DNA of 64,000 nt. Source: Candidatus Heimdallarchaeota archaeon. Its GTDB lineage: Archaea > Asgardarchaeota > Heimdallarchaeia > Heimdallarchaeales > Heimdallarchaeaceae. The stretch's first letter is position 1, and every line of letters starts with the position of its first letter. Below, one piece after another: positions 50,189 to 57,574 of this stretch. Location of the stretch: the NCBI GenBank assembly GCA_016840095.1, contig JAEOSZ010000111.1, positions 64,001 through 128,000 on the forward strand. The letters are read 5' to 3'. The position numbers were made by a program, and so were the translations under genes. A model generated the notes under the pieces. The model was given only the letters and a program-made list of their open reading frames with translations. It ran no database searches and had not been told where the DNA came from.

Positions 50189-51235
50189 CTAAAGAAATGA
50201 ATCTAAGATTGTTTGCTTTGAAAGTGGAATAGAACTAAATCCTTGTTTTCTTAGTTCTGCAGCAAATCTAGTTGTATATCCATAAATTGTGTATATCTGA
50301 TCCGGATTGCTTAATTTGCAAATCTCAACTAGTTCATTATAATCTGCATGATCGCTTATAGGGTAACTATGGTCCACAGCCATTCTGTAATTGTAGTTGT
50401 CTGAAATAGCCCACCCAGTAAAAGCAAATAACTTTACATCATATTTCTTTTTCAGATACGAGAAGAAGAAATCTCTCCCAGATTTAAGTGGAGTAAAAAG
50501 TATCCATTGATTTTTTTGGTCAAGGAAATTAGATTCTTTTGCTTCTGTATATGCCATTGCTGGAATAGATCCTTTAATTTTCTCTTCCAGAAGCAAGGAG
50601 TTTATTTTGTAATTAGACCCATGCATGACAATATTATCAGAAAGATGCGAAAAAGCATTATAGAGCATTTGAGCTTTACCTAATGCATAACCCATCAGTA
50701 CAACAGGAATATCATTCTCTAGATATTCCGAGATTTGTTCCTGTGCTTCCTTTATCACATTACCATATGCTGGAAATATATAATCAGGTGACCCAAATGT
50801 ACTTTCTATAATTAAGATATCACACTTTTCTGGAGAGAAAGGTTCCAAGAATCCTTTATCTCGGGATGAAACATCCCCCGTATAAACAAGCTTCCCTTCT
50901 GAAGATTCAATTATTAAAGCAGTAGACCCTACAATGTGTCCACTAGGTTTTTGTTTGAAAGTTGTAGAATCAACAGTATATGATTCAAAATAATTCCCCT
51001 CTTCATAGTTTTTAACAAAATTCTTCAAAAGAATTTTTGTTGTAGGTGATGTAATAATGTCAGTTTTAGGAATTTTTCTTGGGATATGATCTGAATGAGC
51101 GTGACTATAGAATACAAGAGGATAATACTGTGAGTTCGTACTATCACAAGCAAGTTTCCAATTATTACCATTAACCCTTATTGTTTTAGAGAGAAAAACT
51201 TTCATTATCCTCAGCACAATTGTGCAGATTTGCAA
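50189..51235 (-). CDS. MBL/beta-CASP nuclease
   Basis: SHAHSDH, GHIVGS, YTGD, ESTFG, YALGKAQ and SDHAD motifs. Confidence 0.88.
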   Translation of the reverse strand: MQICTIVLRIMKVFLSKTIRVNGNNWKLACDSTNSQYYPLVFYSHAHSDHIPRKIPKTDIITSPTTKILLKNFVKNYEEGNYFESYTVDSTTFKQKPSGHIVGSTALIIESSEGKLVYTGDVSSRDKGFLEPFSPEKCDILIIESTFGSPDYIFPAYGNVIKEAQEQISEYLENDIPVVLMGYALGKAQMLYNAFSHLSDNIVMHGSNYKINSLLLEEKIKGSIPAMAYTEAKESNFLDQKNQWILFTPLKSGRDFFFSYLKKKYDVKLFAFTGWAISDNYNYRMAVDHSYPISDHADYNELVEICKLSNPDQIYTIYGYTTRFAAELRKQGFSSIPLSKQTILDSFL

Positions 51236-51271
51236 TTATAAATATAATGTAAAAATAAGAAAAAAATAGAT

Positions 51272-51928
51272 TTATGCTTTATAAGGCATAATTTCTATTG
51301 CGATATTATCGTCTGTTAGTTCAACATCTCTAGCAGCCTTTTTAATGGCTTCCTTGGCTATTTGAACCATTTGGTCAGTTGTTAATTCATCTGAATACTT
51401 TTCTTTAAGATAAGCAATAGCTTCTGAATCACCTTCTCCCATAGCTTTTGCTTTACATGAAACAACTCCACCACCAGGATCAACGAATTGTAAACTTGGT
51501 CCAGTTTCGTCTATTCCACCAAACAGCATACCAACACCAAATGGTCTTAATCCACCTTGTTGTGTAAAGACTTGAACATAATCTCCAGTTTTAATTGCTA
51601 GTCCTCTAACATCCATTTGAACAGAGTATGTTAGTTTAAATATCTCAGCTTCAAGACGAGCTCTACTTATCAGAACACGACCATCAGCAGCTACTCCTGC
51701 AAAAATTGCTTGAATATTATCAGAGACTTTGTGAATTTTCAGATCAGGTTCATTGAGATCTACAACTCTTAATAAACCAGCTAAAACAACACCATGTTTA
51801 CTCTTTATTCCTATTGCAATACTTCCTCTTCTAACTGATTCTCTTGCATATTCAGTTTGAATGATACGTCCTTCTGGAGAATACATTAGAGGTGATCTAT
51901 CATAACCCATTGATTGTGGTCCTAACAT
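51272..51928 (-). CDS. psmA: Proteasome alpha subunit
   Basis: YDR..YSPEGRI.Q.EYA, G..ADGR and RPFGV motifs. Confidence 0.93.
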   Translation of the reverse strand: MLGPQSMGYDRSPLMYSPEGRIIQTEYARESVRRGSIAIGIKSKHGVVLAGLLRVVDLNEPDLKIHKVSDNIQAIFAGVAADGRVLISRARLEAEIFKLTYSVQMDVRGLAIKTGDYVQVFTQQGGLRPFGVGMLFGGIDETGPSLQFVDPGGGVVSCKAKAMGEGDSEAIAYLKEKYSDELTTDQMVQIAKEAIKKAARDVELTDDNIAIEIMPYKA

Positions 51929-51932
51929 TTTC

Positions 51933-52595
51933 TTAAGCCTCCAAGTAACCTTTTACTTCATCAGCTGCCAATCTCTTGACACCTTTTTTGTTCACTAACA
52001 AAACATCAATTCCGTCACCAGTAGCAGTATCTCTGCTTGTAGCTGTAGCTAAAGCAGTTATTGCAACTTTGAGTGCTTCTTCTTCAGTTAAACCATCTTT
52101 CCAGGTTGATTCTAAAACACCATATGCAACTAAAGATCCAGAACCTGTAGATGCAAAGTCTTCTTCAGTGATTCCACCTGCCATATCTAGTGTATAAATA
52201 TGTGGTCCATCCTTATCCAGACCTGCAACAACCATGGCAACATAATATGGAAAATATGACCTATATTGTTCATACATGATAGAAGCCAGTAAATTTCCAG
52301 CCATTTTTGTAGTAGGTGAGTAACCTCTTCCAAGCGAATAGAGGTTGAGATTAGCTCTTGTAAGATGAACTAGATATTGTGCATCTCCAACCAATCCTGC
52401 AATTGTAGCAACTGTAGATTCATTGAGTTCATGGACTTTTTCAGCTTTCTTTGAAGCAACAAAAGATCCCATAGAAGCTCTTTTGTCAGCCGCTACAACA
52501 GTACCTCCTTTAAATCTAACAGCAACAGTTGTAGTTCCATGCTTGGGATCCATCATCGGATTATTTCCCATTCCATTGAAATTCGGATTATTCAT
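51933..52595 (-). CDS. psmB: Proteasome beta subunit with 20-aa propeptide
   Basis: G/TTTV cleavage site, AADKRAS, AGLVGDAQ, GSGS and RD..TG motifs. Confidence 0.95.
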   Translation of the reverse strand: MNNPNFNGMGNNPMMDPKHGTTTVAVRFKGGTVVAADKRASMGSFVASKKAEKVHELNESTVATIAGLVGDAQYLVHLTRANLNLYSLGRGYSPTTKMAGNLLASIMYEQYRSYFPYYVAMVVAGLDKDGPHIYTLDMAGGITEEDFASTGSGSLVAYGVLESTWKDGLTEEEALKVAITALATATSRDTATGDGIDVLLVNKKGVKRLAADEVKGYLEA

Positions 52596-52657: not shown

Positions 52658-53374
52658 CTAATTGTATGTATCTTTGATAAAATCTTCAACAATTTCATAA
52701 TCTTCAATTTCTATATTAACTTCATCTAGAGAATATATCTCATTTCTTATCCAGTTTGTAGCTTCTTGTATTTTGTTGTAACTAGGTAAGGATGTTCGAT
52801 ATTCAATGCTAATTTGGTTTCCTTTTTGAATGTAGAGATGAACTCTATCATTATTGTTGTCTTCCCAACATAATTCAATACCTTCTTTGTTTTCTCTTTT
52901 GTAAAGAAATCTAAAATTACCGAACCATCTCTTTTCAAATGCTGAAACTAGTATTTCAGATTTTAATGGTGGAATTAAATGTATCTTTTTCCATTGGGAA
53001 TAGAACCTGTTGTTCTGTATGTTAATAGCATTGTTAGTTATTAAATCCTTGATTAATCCTTTAGTATAATCGCTTCCAATATTTGTAAGTTCATATGTCC
53101 CATTATCTCTTCTGGATAGAAATTCTCTATCTATTAACCTTTTCAGAGCTTTAGTTAATTGATTTTGATGAAGCAAAGTAGTTTTCTTTAACCCTGAAAA
53201 ACTATAAGAGATTTGAGAATCTGATAAAGTTAATAATAGTTGGACCTCTGGTAATGTTAAATAATCATACTCATTACTATAGAAGTAATCCTTTGGAAGA
53301 TTGCCTAACTCAAGGTTGTTATTGTAACCTTCTTTCAAGTTAGAAAAATCTCGATACCCTTGGTCCATATTCAT
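52658..53374 (-). CDS. Winged-HTH domain protein
   Basis: SFSGLKK...LHQ..LTKALKRL ... YELT..G. Confidence 0.65.
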   Translation of the reverse strand: MNMDQGYRDFSNLKEGYNNNLELGNLPKDYFYSNEYDYLTLPEVQLLLTLSDSQISYSFSGLKKTTLLHQNQLTKALKRLIDREFLSRRDNGTYELTNIGSDYTKGLIKDLITNNAINIQNNRFYSQWKKIHLIPPLKSEILVSAFEKRWFGNFRFLYKRENKEGIELCWEDNNNDRVHLYIQKGNQISIEYRTSLPSYNKIQEATNWIRNEIYSLDEVNIEIEDYEIVEDFIKDTYN

Positions 53375-53458
53375 AGTATTATCAATATTATATTATCATA
53401 GTACTTTATAATGACTTGGTTTTTGCAGAATTTAAAGGAAAAAGAACAAAATATCTTT

Positions 53459-55204
53459 TCAGTTATCTTTCTCTCTATTGTTTTCTTTCTCTATTTCACT
53501 TGAAGGACTGACTGAAGTAGGATGTAGGTATACTTCTCCATCTAAAATCGTATATGGTATTCTTCTTTCATCTATCCATGGAGCTGTTTCTCTGAATTCC
53601 TTGAACATATCATTACTCACAATCATGGCATTCTCTTCTTCTGCTAGACGCAGAATGAATTTATCACCATCAACTCTAGCAGGTAACATTTTCATCGCTC
53701 CTTCCTTGACTAACCTATCTAACCGTTTTTGTTCATCAATTTGGTATCGCAATGCTGCATCTGCAACCGTAACGATTTTCTTGAAATTAGCTCTACTTAA
53801 TCGATTGATCATTGCTTCTATATTATTTATTTGTGGTTTATTTGAAAGACTCTTTTCTTCCCATGCTATATTTGAACCATCTAGAATAACCGTTTCTAAA
53901 GGATACGATACTTCAGGGAAAATTCTTGAGCTTGTAGTTCGAACTCTTCTTGCAATTCCTAAAATGATATCTCTAGAGTAATAAGCTAAACCTATAATCA
54001 GTGAAACAAAGAAGATACTGTAAAAAATAATTGGTTGAAAAATAATTGGAGAGCTTTCAACTGGTATAACTGATACAGCTTGAAATTGTGTAAATAGAAG
54101 GATAGTATACCATTTCGTCTCAGATACTGTAATCCATTCTAAATCTATACTAAAGGATAATGGGTGTGTTCCATCAATTTGAGGAACACCATAAATGTAA
54201 TTGTTGTGTCTACCTCCCGCAATTCCCACAGAAACATCTTCAATACCTTCAAAAATTATCTGATCGCAATGAATCTCTGGAACAACGTATAACGTTTCAT
54301 TTTCGTTGTTAATTATCTGATATGTTATCACATAATCCTCTCCCATATTCACAGAAATAGGTAGTTGAAAACTGTCAATAACTAAATCAGGTTCTACGAT
54401 TATTTCTAGTGGATCACTTAGATAAACCCTTGGAGTATCTGGATCATCAATAGTTCTAAAGGTTATTGTAAATGAGTGTTTTTGGAAAAGGTAATCATCA
54501 GGATAGAATGAAATTATACCATCGTAAAATGCCCCTTCTGCAATTTCAATATTCTGTATTGAATGCGATCTTGTCATTGAACCATCTGTTCCAGTTTTTG
54601 TAATTTCATTTGTTACAGTTACATTTGTAACTGTAGTCCCTCCTACATTATTTATTCTACATGAAACTTGATTATCTTGATACCTTGTAAGAAAAGCAGG
54701 ATTTGAAGGAAAGAACATCCTGACTTGTCCGAAAGGTAGAACAATTAGAGTAAAGGATGCTGTAGCATTGTAAGTTGTTGTTGTAGTACTGTTCGCAACA
54801 GCTTTAACAGTAAAAACTCCTCCGTCTTGACCATTAAAAGTTTGCCAAGGGACTGTACGATTGAATTCATCTGTCGTATTTACCCAAACAGTTTCTTCGA
54901 AGATATTCTCACTAAAAGTGTTAGAGATATTGTAATAAACAGTTGAATCAGGGATTAGTGTATTATTTTCGTAGCAAAACTTCATAGTTAAATTGAGATC
55001 GTTTACTCCTCTAGTAATCTCTGATGGATTTGTATAAAAGCTGAAAGTAGCATTTTCAAAGCTTTGAATAACATATCGAGAGTTCTCTTCTATAGGAGGT
55101 TCTATAGCTAGTGCTACATTAGAAGTAGGATTAACAGTCATTGCCAAAAAGAAAATTCCTACTAAAACTATTAGAATGCTATTATTCAATAACCTCCTAA
55201 GCAT
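53459..55204 (-). CDS. Type I membrane protein: glycosylated Ig-like ectodomain, TM and cytoplasmic Zc3h12a/Regnase-type NYN (PIN) ribonuclease
   Basis: Signal peptide; many sequons; TM at ~aa 388-409; ILDGSNIA (D442), DGD (D512/D514), IVSNDMF (D532) and WI.ERR motifs. Confidence 0.85.
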   Translation of the reverse strand: MLRRLLNNSILIVLVGIFFLAMTVNPTSNVALAIEPPIEENSRYVIQSFENATFSFYTNPSEITRGVNDLNLTMKFCYENNTLIPDSTVYYNISNTFSENIFEETVWVNTTDEFNRTVPWQTFNGQDGGVFTVKAVANSTTTTTYNATASFTLIVLPFGQVRMFFPSNPAFLTRYQDNQVSCRINNVGGTTVTNVTVTNEITKTGTDGSMTRSHSIQNIEIAEGAFYDGIISFYPDDYLFQKHSFTITFRTIDDPDTPRVYLSDPLEIIVEPDLVIDSFQLPISVNMGEDYVITYQIINNENETLYVVPEIHCDQIIFEGIEDVSVGIAGGRHNNYIYGVPQIDGTHPLSFSIDLEWITVSETKWYTILLFTQFQAVSVIPVESSPIIFQPIIFYSIFFVSLIIGLAYYSRDIILGIARRVRTTSSRIFPEVSYPLETVILDGSNIAWEEKSLSNKPQINNIEAMINRLSRANFKKIVTVADAALRYQIDEQKRLDRLVKEGAMKMLPARVDGDKFILRLAEEENAMIVSNDMFKEFRETAPWIDERRIPYTILDGEVYLHPTSVSPSSEIEKENNREKDN

Positions 55205-55298
55205 TTATACACTTCTATTTTTTTATTCAAGATAACATTTGAACTGGGTTTAATAAATTTTTGTTAATGTTTTCTGATTCTATAAGAATAAGAATAAT

Positions 55299-55624
55299 GG
55301 ACGATGCAGAAATACCCCTGATTCTGTTCGGAAGCCATTAGGATCTTCCTGGCAACATTCATCTAAGCACTTTACCCAGTTCTTACGAACTCTACTTAAG
55401 CTTGCTCCACGATGTTTGACCGTTTCATCGTATCCTAGTTTCTTCTCAGCAATTTATTCTAAACATGTCACCAGTCTATTTATCGCATCATTGTTATCGA
55501 AACTAGGGCGTTCGTTTCTGTTTCAAGAGCCATATTCTCATATGGTGGATTTACATCCACATCGTTATTATGGAGTCAGGAGGTTCCTCAGCAATAAGCC
55601 GAAAGTTGCCCTTTTGCTTCGTCC
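55299..55624 (-). ncRNA. rnpB: RNase P RNA
   Basis: Minus strand: P1 GGACGA.GCA/TGC.TCGTCC; GAGGAACCTCCTGA pairs with AACAGAATCAGGGGTA (P4 with bulged U); internal ACAGAAAC and GAAACGG motifs; GGAGCAAG. Confidence 0.93.
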
Positions 55625-55683
55625 AACTAAAAGTATTGAATTATACTGATAAATGTAGCTGTAATAGTGAGTAGTTTTGTAAT

Positions 55684-56895
55684 CTAGATAACTTTCAGAT
55701 TTTTACCTATTTTCTCCATTGCTGCTAAGATATAATCGATTTCTTCCTCAGTATGAGTTGCCATTACACAACATCTTAATCTTCCTGCATCTAGAGGGAC
55801 AGCTGGATAAACTATTGGTGGTACCAATATACCTGCTTTTCTCATTTGTTTTGCAAATCGAAAAGTTTTGACATCATTTCCAATAATGACAGGTACAATG
55901 GGCGTATCCTTACTCTTTAATGTATCATACCCTAGCTCTTTAACACCATTAATGAAATGAGTATAGTTTTTCTGTAATGCTCTTATTCTCTCTATATCCG
56001 TTTCAATTATTTCTATTGCTTTAAGAGCTACAGCAGCTGATACTGGTGGAAGAGCTGCACTGAAGATAAACGCATTAGAATTGAACTTTAGATAAGTAAT
56101 AACATCCTTATTAGCAGCAATATATCCTCCTATTGATGGAATTGCTTTACTTAAAGTTCCCATGTAAATATCAATAGCTCCAGGTTCAAGATTGAAATAA
56201 TCATCAATTCCTCTTCCATTCGGTCCTATAGTTCCTATTGAGTGAGCTTCATCTACCATTGTAAATGCTTTGTGTTGTTTTGCCAATTCAATAATTTCTG
56301 GCATCGGAGCTATATCTCCATCCATACTATAAACTCCATCTACAATAACAATCACACGTTTGTAATTCTCACGATGTTCTTCAAGAACTTCAGCTAAGTT
56401 ATCCATGTCATTATGATTGAATCTCTTCCAATCTGCTTTTGACAATATACAACCATCATATATACTCTGATGATCATATTTGTCAATAATGATCAAATCA
56501 TCTTTTCCAAACAATGTGGATATCAAAGTCATATTAGTTACATAACCGCTGCTTAGAACCATTGCATCCTCAGTTCTTTTAAATTCAGAAATTTTCTTTT
56601 CTAGAGTATGGTGTAAATCTGTAGTTCCTGTTAGTAACCTAACACCACCTGCTCCTACACCATATTTATCCATAGCTTCATGTCCTACTTTTATGATTTC
56701 AGGATGAGTAATGAGTCCCAAATAACTATAAGATCCCAACATTAGTAATTCTTGACCATCCACTAGAACTTTACTAGATGCAGCATTTTGGATAGGGAGC
56801 ATGTAAGAGTTTAAACCAAGTTTCTCAAAGTACTTGGCTCTCTTTAAGAAATTCTTAATTTTAGTATTATCTGTGATTTTAGTAATTTTTCTCAC
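55684..56895 (-). CDS. PLP-dependent alpha-oxoamine synthase (BioF/KBL/serine palmitoyltransferase family)
   Basis: GSYSYLGL, HQSI, FNHND, DGVYSMDGD, DEAHS and GTLSKA motifs. Confidence 0.9.
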   Translation of the reverse strand: MRKITKITDNTKIKNFLKRAKYFEKLGLNSYMLPIQNAASSKVLVDGQELLMLGSYSYLGLITHPEIIKVGHEAMDKYGVGAGGVRLLTGTTDLHHTLEKKISEFKRTEDAMVLSSGYVTNMTLISTLFGKDDLIIIDKYDHQSIYDGCILSKADWKRFNHNDMDNLAEVLEEHRENYKRVIVIVDGVYSMDGDIAPMPEIIELAKQHKAFTMVDEAHSIGTIGPNGRGIDDYFNLEPGAIDIYMGTLSKAIPSIGGYIAANKDVITYLKFNSNAFIFSAALPPVSAAVALKAIEIIETDIERIRALQKNYTHFINGVKELGYDTLKSKDTPIVPVIIGNDVKTFRFAKQMRKAGILVPPIVYPAVPLDAGRLRCCVMATHTEEEIDYILAAMEKIGKNLKVI

Positions 56896-57498: not shown

Positions 57499-57574
57499 GG
57501 GCCAGTAGTTCAGTGGATAGAATGGCTGCCTGCGGAGCAGTTGGTCGACGGTTCGAATCCGTTCTGGCCCGCCA
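57499..57574 (+). tRNA. tRNA-Arg(GCG)
   Basis: GGGCCAG/CTGGCCC acceptor, GCTGC-CTGCGGA-GCAGT anticodon arm, GTTCGAATC, encoded CCA. Confidence 0.95.

Follow-up and report, generated by a model that had tools for sequence, protein, structure and literature searches.

A predicted membrane-tethered nuclease of the Zc3h12a family behind an Ig-like ectodomain in Heimdall-group archaea

Introduction

One nuclease domain serves animals in both mRNA decay and antiviral defence, as part of Regnase-1, KHNYN and N4BP1. Here, we describe a gene of a Candidatus Heimdallarchaeota archaeon in which the same domain lies at the C-terminus of a predicted single-pass membrane protein with a large ectodomain, an arrangement inherited through one order of Asgard archaea and which we tentatively read as a ribonuclease held at the inner face of the cytoplasmic membrane. 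The gene lies on the reverse strand of the window, by which we mean the whole 64,000-nucleotide (nt) stretch analysed (positions 64,001 to 128,000 of contig JAEOSZ010000111.1, assembly GCA_016840095.1), and its product of 581 amino acids (aa) is called P0001. The coordinates of the gene, which come from a list of open reading frames (ORFs) and their translations and include the stop codon, are collected with those of the protein segments and neighbouring genes in Table 1.

Layout and topology of the protein

On a Kyte-Doolittle (KD) hydropathy plot, P0001 has two hydrophobic segments, at aa ~5-29 and aa ~385-410. MLRR stands before the first and A-L-A|I (31-34) after it; in the AlphaFold2 (AF2) model the N-terminus forms a helix at 3-24 and then a low-confidence linker at 25-47. 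The second is followed directly by a basic RRVRTTSSR stretch, and here the full-length model (mean predicted local distance difference test, pLDDT, 83.9) contains a single long helix, 391-424, that reaches ~14 residues past the membrane, a linker at 417-428 with pLDDT <50 and then the nuclease domain of the NYN (PIN-like) type, whose blocks score ~84-92. An earlier note, made from the letters alone, had proposed a signal peptide, a beta-rich ectodomain with many N-glycosylation sequons, one transmembrane (TM) helix and a cytoplasmic nuclease domain; Pfam matches, hydropathy, AF2 models and the homologue alignment together support this architecture, with the first segment being either a signal peptide or a signal anchor. 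In layout, and perhaps also in function, P0001 resembles a receptor coupled to an RNase.

The distribution of charge and of glycosylation sites places the NYN domain in the cytoplasm, as that note had supposed. Across 76 homologues, the mean number of K+R per 15 aa is 0.57 preceding the TM helix and 4.09 following it, and N-X-S/T sequons average 11.7 in the ectodomain vs 0.5 in the cytoplasmic part. The ectodomain of P0001 itself has 10 such sequons, against 4.8 expected from its composition (a count reached in 24 of 2000 shuffles), and its cytoplasmic part has none; N80, N92 and N138 are present in 50/50 rows of the close family and N194 in 46/50. Together with the basic N-terminus, this distribution argues for an orientation with the N-terminus in, the ectodomain out and the NYN domain in, whether the first segment is cleaved or not.

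Table 1. Features of the locus, given in window coordinates
Feature	Position	Strand	Basis or remark
Whole coding sequence, 581 aa	53459..55204	-	ORF and >100 full-length homologues
Putative signal peptide or signal anchor, aa 1-33 (MLRR, hydrophobic core ~9-29, A-L-A 31-33)	55106..55204	-	KD peak 2.19
Ectodomain D1, aa 50-156, macroglobulin-like Ig sandwich; conserved sequons N80/N92/N138	54737..55057	-	pLDDT >90; 2p9r_B match
Ectodomain D2, aa 157-271, ASH/PapD/CARDB-like Ig sandwich; invariant N186 and G188	54392..54736	-	6fvi_A match; Atlas neighbours
Ectodomain D3, aa 272-384, CARDB/MG-like Ig sandwich; fastest-evolving domain	54053..54391	-	7e1y_A and 6rqj_A matches
TM helix, aa 387-410	53975..54046	-	KD peak 2.23; helix 391-424 in model
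Basic juxtamembrane helix (conserved Y408, D412) and flexible linker, aa 411-435	53900..53974	-	Charge; pLDDT
Zc3h12a-type NYN (PIN-like) RNase domain, aa 436-565	53510..53899	-	PF11977; fold; dN/dS
Variable acidic C-terminal tail, aa 566-581, and stop	53459..53509	-	No conservation; pLDDT <50
Archaeal RNase P RNA gene, rnpB	55302-55621	-	RF00373, 156.8 bits
Winged helix-turn-helix (wHTH)-like protein, 238 aa	52658-53374	-	Weak MarR/SarA-type winged-helix match, aa 37-91; C-terminal half unassigned
Proteasome beta (psmB)	51933-52595	-	
Proteasome alpha (psmA)	51272-51928	-	
Metallo-beta-lactamase-fold protein, 348 aa	after psmA, within 50189-52595	-	Weak RMMBL (RNA-specificity) match
Class-II aminotransferase, alpha-oxoamine synthase type	55684-56895	-	Aminotran_1_2, 194.7 bits
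tRNA gene	57499-57571	+	66.4 bits
TPR-repeat protein, 640 aa	57581-59503	-	

The nuclease domain

Pfam matches aa 436-557 to PF11977 (RNase_Zc3h12a) with E 3.8e-17 and 62.9 bits for the whole protein, or 66.8 bits when aa 425-581 are scored alone (profile positions 2-138 of 154), so that the hidden Markov model (HMM) search suggested by the earlier note gave scores well over the gathering cut-off of 23 bits. The cytoplasmic part has no other Pfam match, and an NCBIfam search of P0001 returned no family. The acidic active-site set that had drawn attention to the protein is complete in its three motifs, DGSN at 442-445, D-G-D at 512-514 and S-N-D at 530-532. Across 76 homologues, D442, N445, D482, D514, N531 and D532 never vary, while E536 shows conservation of 90% or more.

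The relationship extends to the whole domain. A profile (A4) of 29 NYN domains from the clade of TM-anchored NYN (TM-NYN) proteins, run against all PDB sequences, matched ZC3H12A, B and C and KHNYN only, with E 2.6e-11 to 3.4e-9 and over the entire domain. In a structural search of the AF2 model against 48,161 representative chains, the top match of aa 435-564 was the PIN domain of ZC3H12C (7ndj_A; Z-score 16.3, root-mean-square deviation (rmsd) 2.1 Å, 129 aa aligned, 26% identity) and the second was plant PRORP1 (Z 12.5), both of which outrank all of the Ig-like matches of the ectodomain described below.

Mutation of D141, D225, D226 or D244 abolishes the activity of Regnase-1 (PMC3413151). 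By alignment, D442 is equivalent to D141, D514 to D226 (a Mg ligand), D532 to D244 and E536 to D248, and the acidic residues that match D141, D226 and D244 are thus among those invariant in the 76 homologues. D512 is not conserved across the wider clade, in which a further Asp, D482, located where the second strand ends, is invariant. No CCCH zinc finger is present in P0001, which ends 16 residues past the NYN domain, has no Cys after aa 313 and has no zinc-finger Pfam match; it is therefore a member of the PF11977 domain family outside the Regnase/ZC3H12 subfamily. The label 'Regnase-1-type' given by the earlier note fits the nuclease domain and does not extend to the rest, since the CCCH finger and, by alignment, the D225 equivalent are missing. 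The family itself has been little explored in prokaryotes: a survey of the PIN superfamily from 2017 counted only 23 archaeal PF11977 proteins and assigned no function to the prokaryotic members (PMC5499597).

The ectodomain

The ~350-aa ectodomain, expected to be beta-rich, is all-beta in the AF2 models and, when modelled alone with 76 sequences, resolves into three all-beta sandwiches at pLDDT 93.3 and a predicted template modelling score (pTM) of 0.81. D1 (aa ~50-156) matches a macroglobulin (MG) domain with Z 11.9 and rmsd 2.2 Å over 95 aa, D2 (aa ~157-271) an ASH/PapD-like domain with Z 10.7, and D3 (aa ~272-384) CARDB/MG-type domains with Z 10.8 for 7e1y_A and 10.1 for 6rqj_A; overall, these matches at Z 10-12 and rmsd 2.2-3.5 Å identify an Ig-like beta-sandwich fold. 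Foldseek returned complement/A2M MG arrays, the S-layer protein SbsB, adhesins and integrins, and the neighbours in the ESM Atlas are archaeal and bacterial surface proteins with CARDB, NPCBM_assoc or DUF11 domains; searching that atlas by features returned nothing usable. Pfam places the ectodomain in no named family at gathering score, the nearest being A2M (E 0.019-0.044), CARDB (E 0.15) and TRAP_beta (E 0.36), with the weak A2M and CARDB matches lying at aa 262-307. Three residues, N186, G188 and P272, are invariant in the ectodomain across the clade.

The structure prediction and Foldseek comparison called for by the earlier note thus yielded three generic Ig-like sandwiches at high confidence. 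As modelled, the ectodomain has a common prokaryotic surface-protein fold that carries no pointer to a particular ligand, and neither the fold matches nor the Atlas neighbours contain a recognisable ligand-binding fold or pocket. A homodimer prediction for the ectodomain (A3 x 2) scored 0.00, which speaks neither for nor against dimerisation. Likeness to a TRAP subunit was considered for D3 plus the TM helix (aa 273-421, window ~53942-54388) and rejected, as the match to 8b5l_q, from a ribosome-Sec61-TRAP structure, ranks 40th (Z 9.2, rmsd 5.9 Å, 138 aa) and is no better than the other Ig-like matches.

Distribution, descent and selection

A word-indexed search returned 62 full-length homologues of 42-84% identity, of which all the named ones come from metagenome-assembled genomes of Heimdallarchaeota or Heimdallarchaeaceae, including Ca. 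Heimdallarchaeum aukensis (3.08-Mb contig), in agreement with the Asgard origin that the earlier note had guessed; with the NYN profile, such a search returned archaeal proteins only. At E <= 1e-30, an exhaustive search with the NYN part gave 31 cluster representatives; almost all of them are 540-620 aa long and have the NYN domain C-terminal. All clade members among them have a hydrophobic N-terminus and a TM helix ~30-50 residues upstream of DGSN, the shorter ones being fragments, and the source names in the wider TM-NYN set include Kariarchaeaceae and Heimdallarchaeota LC_2.

The survey of PF11977 matches covered 201 sampled genomes of the phylum. In Heimdallarchaeaceae (f1), the family of P0001, 19 of the 21 genomes have a match, in frames of 581-648 aa save for one 484-aa frame near a contig start, and each has a single match apart from G003, where a weak second match occurs; the TM-NYN gene is present in one copy in the source genome. 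In the rest of the order, matches occur in 7/7 genomes of f2 (the long form in all seven), in the one genome of f3 (long form) and in 2/2 of f4 (one long form and one weak fragment). Elsewhere in the phylum the domain is variable, being mostly a soluble NYN protein of ~170 aa or absent.

A maximum-likelihood tree built from 172 NYN domains unites all 42 TM-type rows in a single clade (Shimodaira-Hasegawa-like approximate likelihood ratio test, SH-aLRT, 93) that contains no other architecture, and more than 100 TM-NYN homologues were found in total, on independent contigs that include closed genomes of 3.1-3.3 Mb. The single clade, together with an ectodomain that is homologous throughout, indicates that the fusion arose once and was inherited vertically; an assembly chimera or one-off fusion, a possibility that the earlier note had raised, is ruled out by the homologues on independent contigs and in closed genomes. 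We take the TM-NYN gene to belong to the vertically inherited core of one order of the Heimdall group, and to be neither a mobile nor a defence gene.

The two halves of the protein have evolved at different rates. Identity to P0001 is 78-98% in the NYN domain where the ectodomain domains of the homologues are at 23-85%. For the closest informative pair, the window vs L029, at which the synonymous divergence (dS) is about 0.8-1.1, the ratio of nonsynonymous to synonymous divergence (dN/dS) is 0.016 for the NYN domain, 0.12 for the whole ectodomain and 0.11-0.13 for each of its domains; against a more distant orthologue, that of D3 rises to 0.37. Both parts are under purifying selection, which in the ectodomain is ~8x more relaxed.

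Genomic neighbourhood

The 3' end of rnpB lies 97 nt upstream of the start codon of the TM-NYN gene, and the two are neighbours in all six Heimdallarchaeaceae loci checked, by Rfam or by reading (the window, L002, L004 and L016, with the same gap and gene order in L029-L031); in loci of other families with the TM-NYN gene this adjacency is found in 0 of 10. Downstream follow the wHTH-like gene, psmB, psmA and the metallo-beta-lactamase-fold gene, and all of the Heimdallarchaeaceae loci examined share the order rnpB-TM-NYN-wHTH-psmB-psmA. By eye, rnpB is followed by a T-rich run, a TATA-like TTTATTAAA stands ~35-40 nt upstream of the TM-NYN ATG and a second T-rich run lies past its stop codon.

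An operon shared with the wHTH and proteasome genes was considered and rejected. The wHTH gene adjoins the TM-NYN gene in 19/19 genomes of the family for which both coordinates are known, and the set of psmB, psmA and the metallo-beta-lactamase gene accompanies it within Heimdallarchaeaceae; in other families that keep the TM-NYN gene, the wHTH homologue is unlinked, lying on other contigs (in G054, on another contig of a 10-contig assembly), except in G092, a genome in which the proteasome and metallo-beta-lactamase set is divergently arranged. We read this neighbourhood as housekeeping synteny and not as an operon or module. In Kariarchaeaceae-type loci (L005, 3941-5767 (-), L009, L010, L013 and L014), the neighbours of the TM-NYN gene encode a conserved protein of ~608 aa, in which a PIN domain is matched N-terminally below threshold (PIN_12/PIN), and an AlaX-like tRNA-editing protein (tRNA_SAD).

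PADLOC-DB has no family for P0001 at E <= 0.001 and gave no meaningful match for P0001 or its neighbours, the 238-aa wHTH-like protein having a weak match to WH_III-A (E 7e-6), and the neighbourhood contains no partner signalling genes. Beyond rnpB lie the aminotransferase gene, upstream of it, and the tRNA and TPR-protein genes, of which the last two are also conserved near the locus in L004.

Other NYN proteins

Membrane tethering of the NYN domain is not confined to relatives of P0001. A 670-aa protein from another Asgard family (G053; L017 1957-3969 (-), to which P0141 is identical over its length) has a signal peptide, a PQQ/BamB-like beta-propeller (PF13570, 256 bits; PF13360, 177 bits), one TM helix, a basic segment and a PF11977 NYN domain, and P0113 is a 454-aa signal peptide-ectodomain-TM-NYN protein with no Pfam match in its ectodomain. 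Both fall outside the Heimdall TM clade on the NYN tree, and the propeller-TM-NYN arrangement is thus an independent fusion. Further forms include short NYN proteins with an N-terminal TM anchor (P0103, P0144), a polytopic membrane domain joined to NYN (P0133) and an NYN domain followed by TM segments (NYN-TM-TM; G049, L018 532-2880 (-)). Tethering has therefore evolved several times, at least twice behind different ectodomains, which is the best argument that we found for a receptor-like module.

Soluble forms of other kinds also occur. One, from G169 (L008 6517-8454 (+)), is a paralogue of 645 aa whose C-terminal NYN domain is also matched by Pfam PRORP, below the cut-off (E 5.4e-8). In several Asgard genomes, partial NYN-like segments stand in tandem within long soluble proteins (L019-L028).

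What the protein may do

From the observed architecture, topology indicators, fold, catalytic-residue conservation, clade and distribution, we infer an RNase activity, candidate substrates and a role for the ectodomain. The reading that we prefer, with confidence somewhat short of even, is that P0001 is a single-pass surface glycoprotein serving as a cytoplasm-facing, membrane-tethered endoribonuclease, a core component of one order whose targets would be RNAs at the membrane. The NYN domain would lie in the cytoplasm ~25 residues from the membrane and would most likely be a Mg2+-dependent endoribonuclease that cleaves RNA at the inner face. Its substrates may be mRNAs in translation there, and the most plausible role of the three Ig-like modules is to fix the enzyme in place, position it or cluster it by contacts that they make within the cell envelope.

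Several observations weigh against this reading. Alignment to Regnase-1 leaves D225 without an equivalent, a 7-residue deletion putting G513 at that place, and P0001 is without any extra RNA-binding domain comparable to the CCCH finger of Regnase-1. Contigs from three metatranscriptome studies are 100% identical to rnpB over about 263-282 nt, and the public RNA contigs over 53300-55700 cover rnpB alone (about 55319-55611), end inside it and include none over the TM-NYN gene, although contigs of this kind cannot show absence, so that nothing follows on the expression of that gene. Simple anchoring would not call for an ectodomain of 350 aa that is conserved, and the independent fusion of a different ectodomain to TM-NYN, as seen in receptor families, favours a sensor.

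Such a sensor would be a ligand-gated RNase, in which an extracellular cue (a partner cell, a virus or an envelope component) binds the ectodomain, clusters the NYN domains and starts RNA cleavage, making P0001 a functional analogue of IRE1 from unrelated parts. We regard this as quite possible, if still doubtful. The receptor-like layout, with its flexible linker between the juxtamembrane helix and the NYN domain, suits it, as does the purifying selection on the ectodomain, which argues that the ectodomain is functional. Swapping of ectodomains is typical of receptors, and here a PQQ beta-propeller with a TM helix has been fused independently to the same nuclease, with P0113 offering a third ectodomain. 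The activity of Regnase-1 depends on head-to-tail oligomerisation of its NYN domain, which is consistent with control by clustering. Against a sensor stand an ectodomain of generic CARDB/MG/PapD Ig-like sandwiches, common in structural surface proteins, in which no ligand fold or pocket was recognised; a TM helix without a GxxxG-type dimer motif; and the lack of partner signalling genes nearby. The single copy and housekeeping synteny likewise differ from the expanded, variable families usual for sensors. A membrane-tethered RNase that is constitutively active fits the single copy, the housekeeping synteny and the lack of defence-family matches about as well as a sensor does.

An enzyme of stable-RNA processing, working with RNase P or in tRNA metabolism, is improbable. 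It would account for rnpB directly upstream in the Heimdallarchaeaceae loci checked and for the AlaX-like tRNA-editing and PIN-domain neighbours in other families; the second-best structural match is to PRORP1, and PF11977 has been placed in the PRORP group of PIN-like nucleases (PMC5499597). However, the absence of rnpB from beside the gene in 10 other-family loci with the same protein makes the adjacency look like family-level synteny, the T-rich stretch and TATA-like box seen by eye suggest separate transcription, the RNA contigs end within rnpB, and tRNA processing would hardly require an ectodomain or anchoring in the membrane.

More improbable still is an antiviral or abortive-infection effector that answers contact with a virus at the surface by indiscriminate RNA cleavage. 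Its eukaryotic relatives Regnase-1, KHNYN and N4BP1 act on viral RNA (in part after PMC5499597), and the surface-exposed ectodomain evolves faster than the nuclease; yet P0001 has no PADLOC match, its gene lies outside defence islands as a single-copy core gene with fixed housekeeping neighbours across the family, and domain-wide dN/dS values of 0.12-0.16 give no sign of an arms race. We give very little credence to a non-catalytic NYN domain whose only role at the membrane is to bind a protein partner or RNA, since the D225 equivalent missing in the alignment, in a family whose members vary in the number of active-site residues (PMC5499597), is set against clade-wide invariance of D442, D514, D532 and D482, conservation of E536 and extreme purifying selection, which together form the pattern of an active site.

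Broader meaning

A nuclease domain of eukaryotic mRNA decay and innate immunity is here part of a single-copy, extremely conserved core gene in an archaeal order near the eukaryotic root, and is joined to the cell surface. The boldest version is an outside-in RNA-cleavage switch in Heimdall-group archaea, in which an Ig-like ectodomain (or, in another family, a beta-propeller) controls the clustering and activity of a membrane-bound Regnase-type nuclease. We hold this to be less likely than not; were it true, it would be an archaeal counterpart of control of membrane-bound mRNAs of the kind exerted by IRE1 in regulated IRE1-dependent decay (RIDD), or by Regnase. External control would also amount to a new and very simple form of transmembrane signalling, from receptor directly to RNA cleavage with no kinase, and to a second independent solution to the task of IRE1.

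To our knowledge, no membrane-tethered RNA-decay nuclease has previously been described in archaea, and a constitutive enzyme would be the first of its kind, in parallel to RNase Y and RNase E of bacteria, and would bear on how Asgard archaea handle the mRNAs of secreted and membrane proteins. Our literature search, whose coverage leaves subscription journals largely outside, found no description of this architecture, in keeping with the earlier note, which knew of no characterised protein like it. The small cytoplasmic domain and predictable catalytic residues make these ideas readily testable.

Comparison with known systems

The closest characterised relatives are the eukaryotic Zc3h12a-type RNases (Regnase-1/MCPIP1, ZC3H12B-D, KHNYN and N4BP1), which have the same nuclease domain by HMM, PDB profile and fold, and share with P0001 the DGSN and SND motifs and the Mg-binding Asp (D514 = D226). 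P0001 differs from them in being archaeal and tethered to the membrane behind a 350-aa ectodomain, and in having no CCCH zinc finger, KH or ubiquitin-binding domain; in the alignment with Regnase-1, the 7-residue deletion removes the D225 equivalent, D482 is an extra invariant residue and E536 replaces D248. Among prokaryotes, the nearest relatives of the nuclease domain are the soluble ~170-aa Asgard NYN proteins and the 'Zc3h12a-like ribonuclease' (~345 aa) of Methanobacteriaceae, at 36-41% identity, which unlike P0001 have no signal peptide, ectodomain or TM helix.

With IRE1, the likeness is one of layout alone, namely a sensor-like domain beyond the membrane, one TM helix and a cytoplasmic RNase; the domains are unrelated, and P0001 has no Pfam match to a Ser/Thr kinase or KEN domain. 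RNase Y of bacteria has an N-terminal TM segment and HD/KH domains, and RNase E a membrane-binding helix and an S1 domain, neither having a large ectodomain. Both are, like the predicted P0001 enzyme, endoribonucleases at the cytoplasmic face of the membrane, from which P0001 differs by its large ectodomain and its catalytic domain. Bacterial proteins of the PIN.COG4956 family, which consist of four TM helices, a PIN domain and a TRAM domain (PMC5499597), also join a PIN-like nuclease to TM segments; they have the TRAM domain and no large ectodomain. A protein of similar plan is the PQQ-propeller-TM-NYN protein of G053 (L017), which shares with P0001 the signal peptide, an ectodomain, one TM helix, the basic stop-transfer segment and the NYN family, and differs in that its ectodomain is a PQQ/BamB-like propeller and its NYN domain falls outside the Heimdall TM clade.

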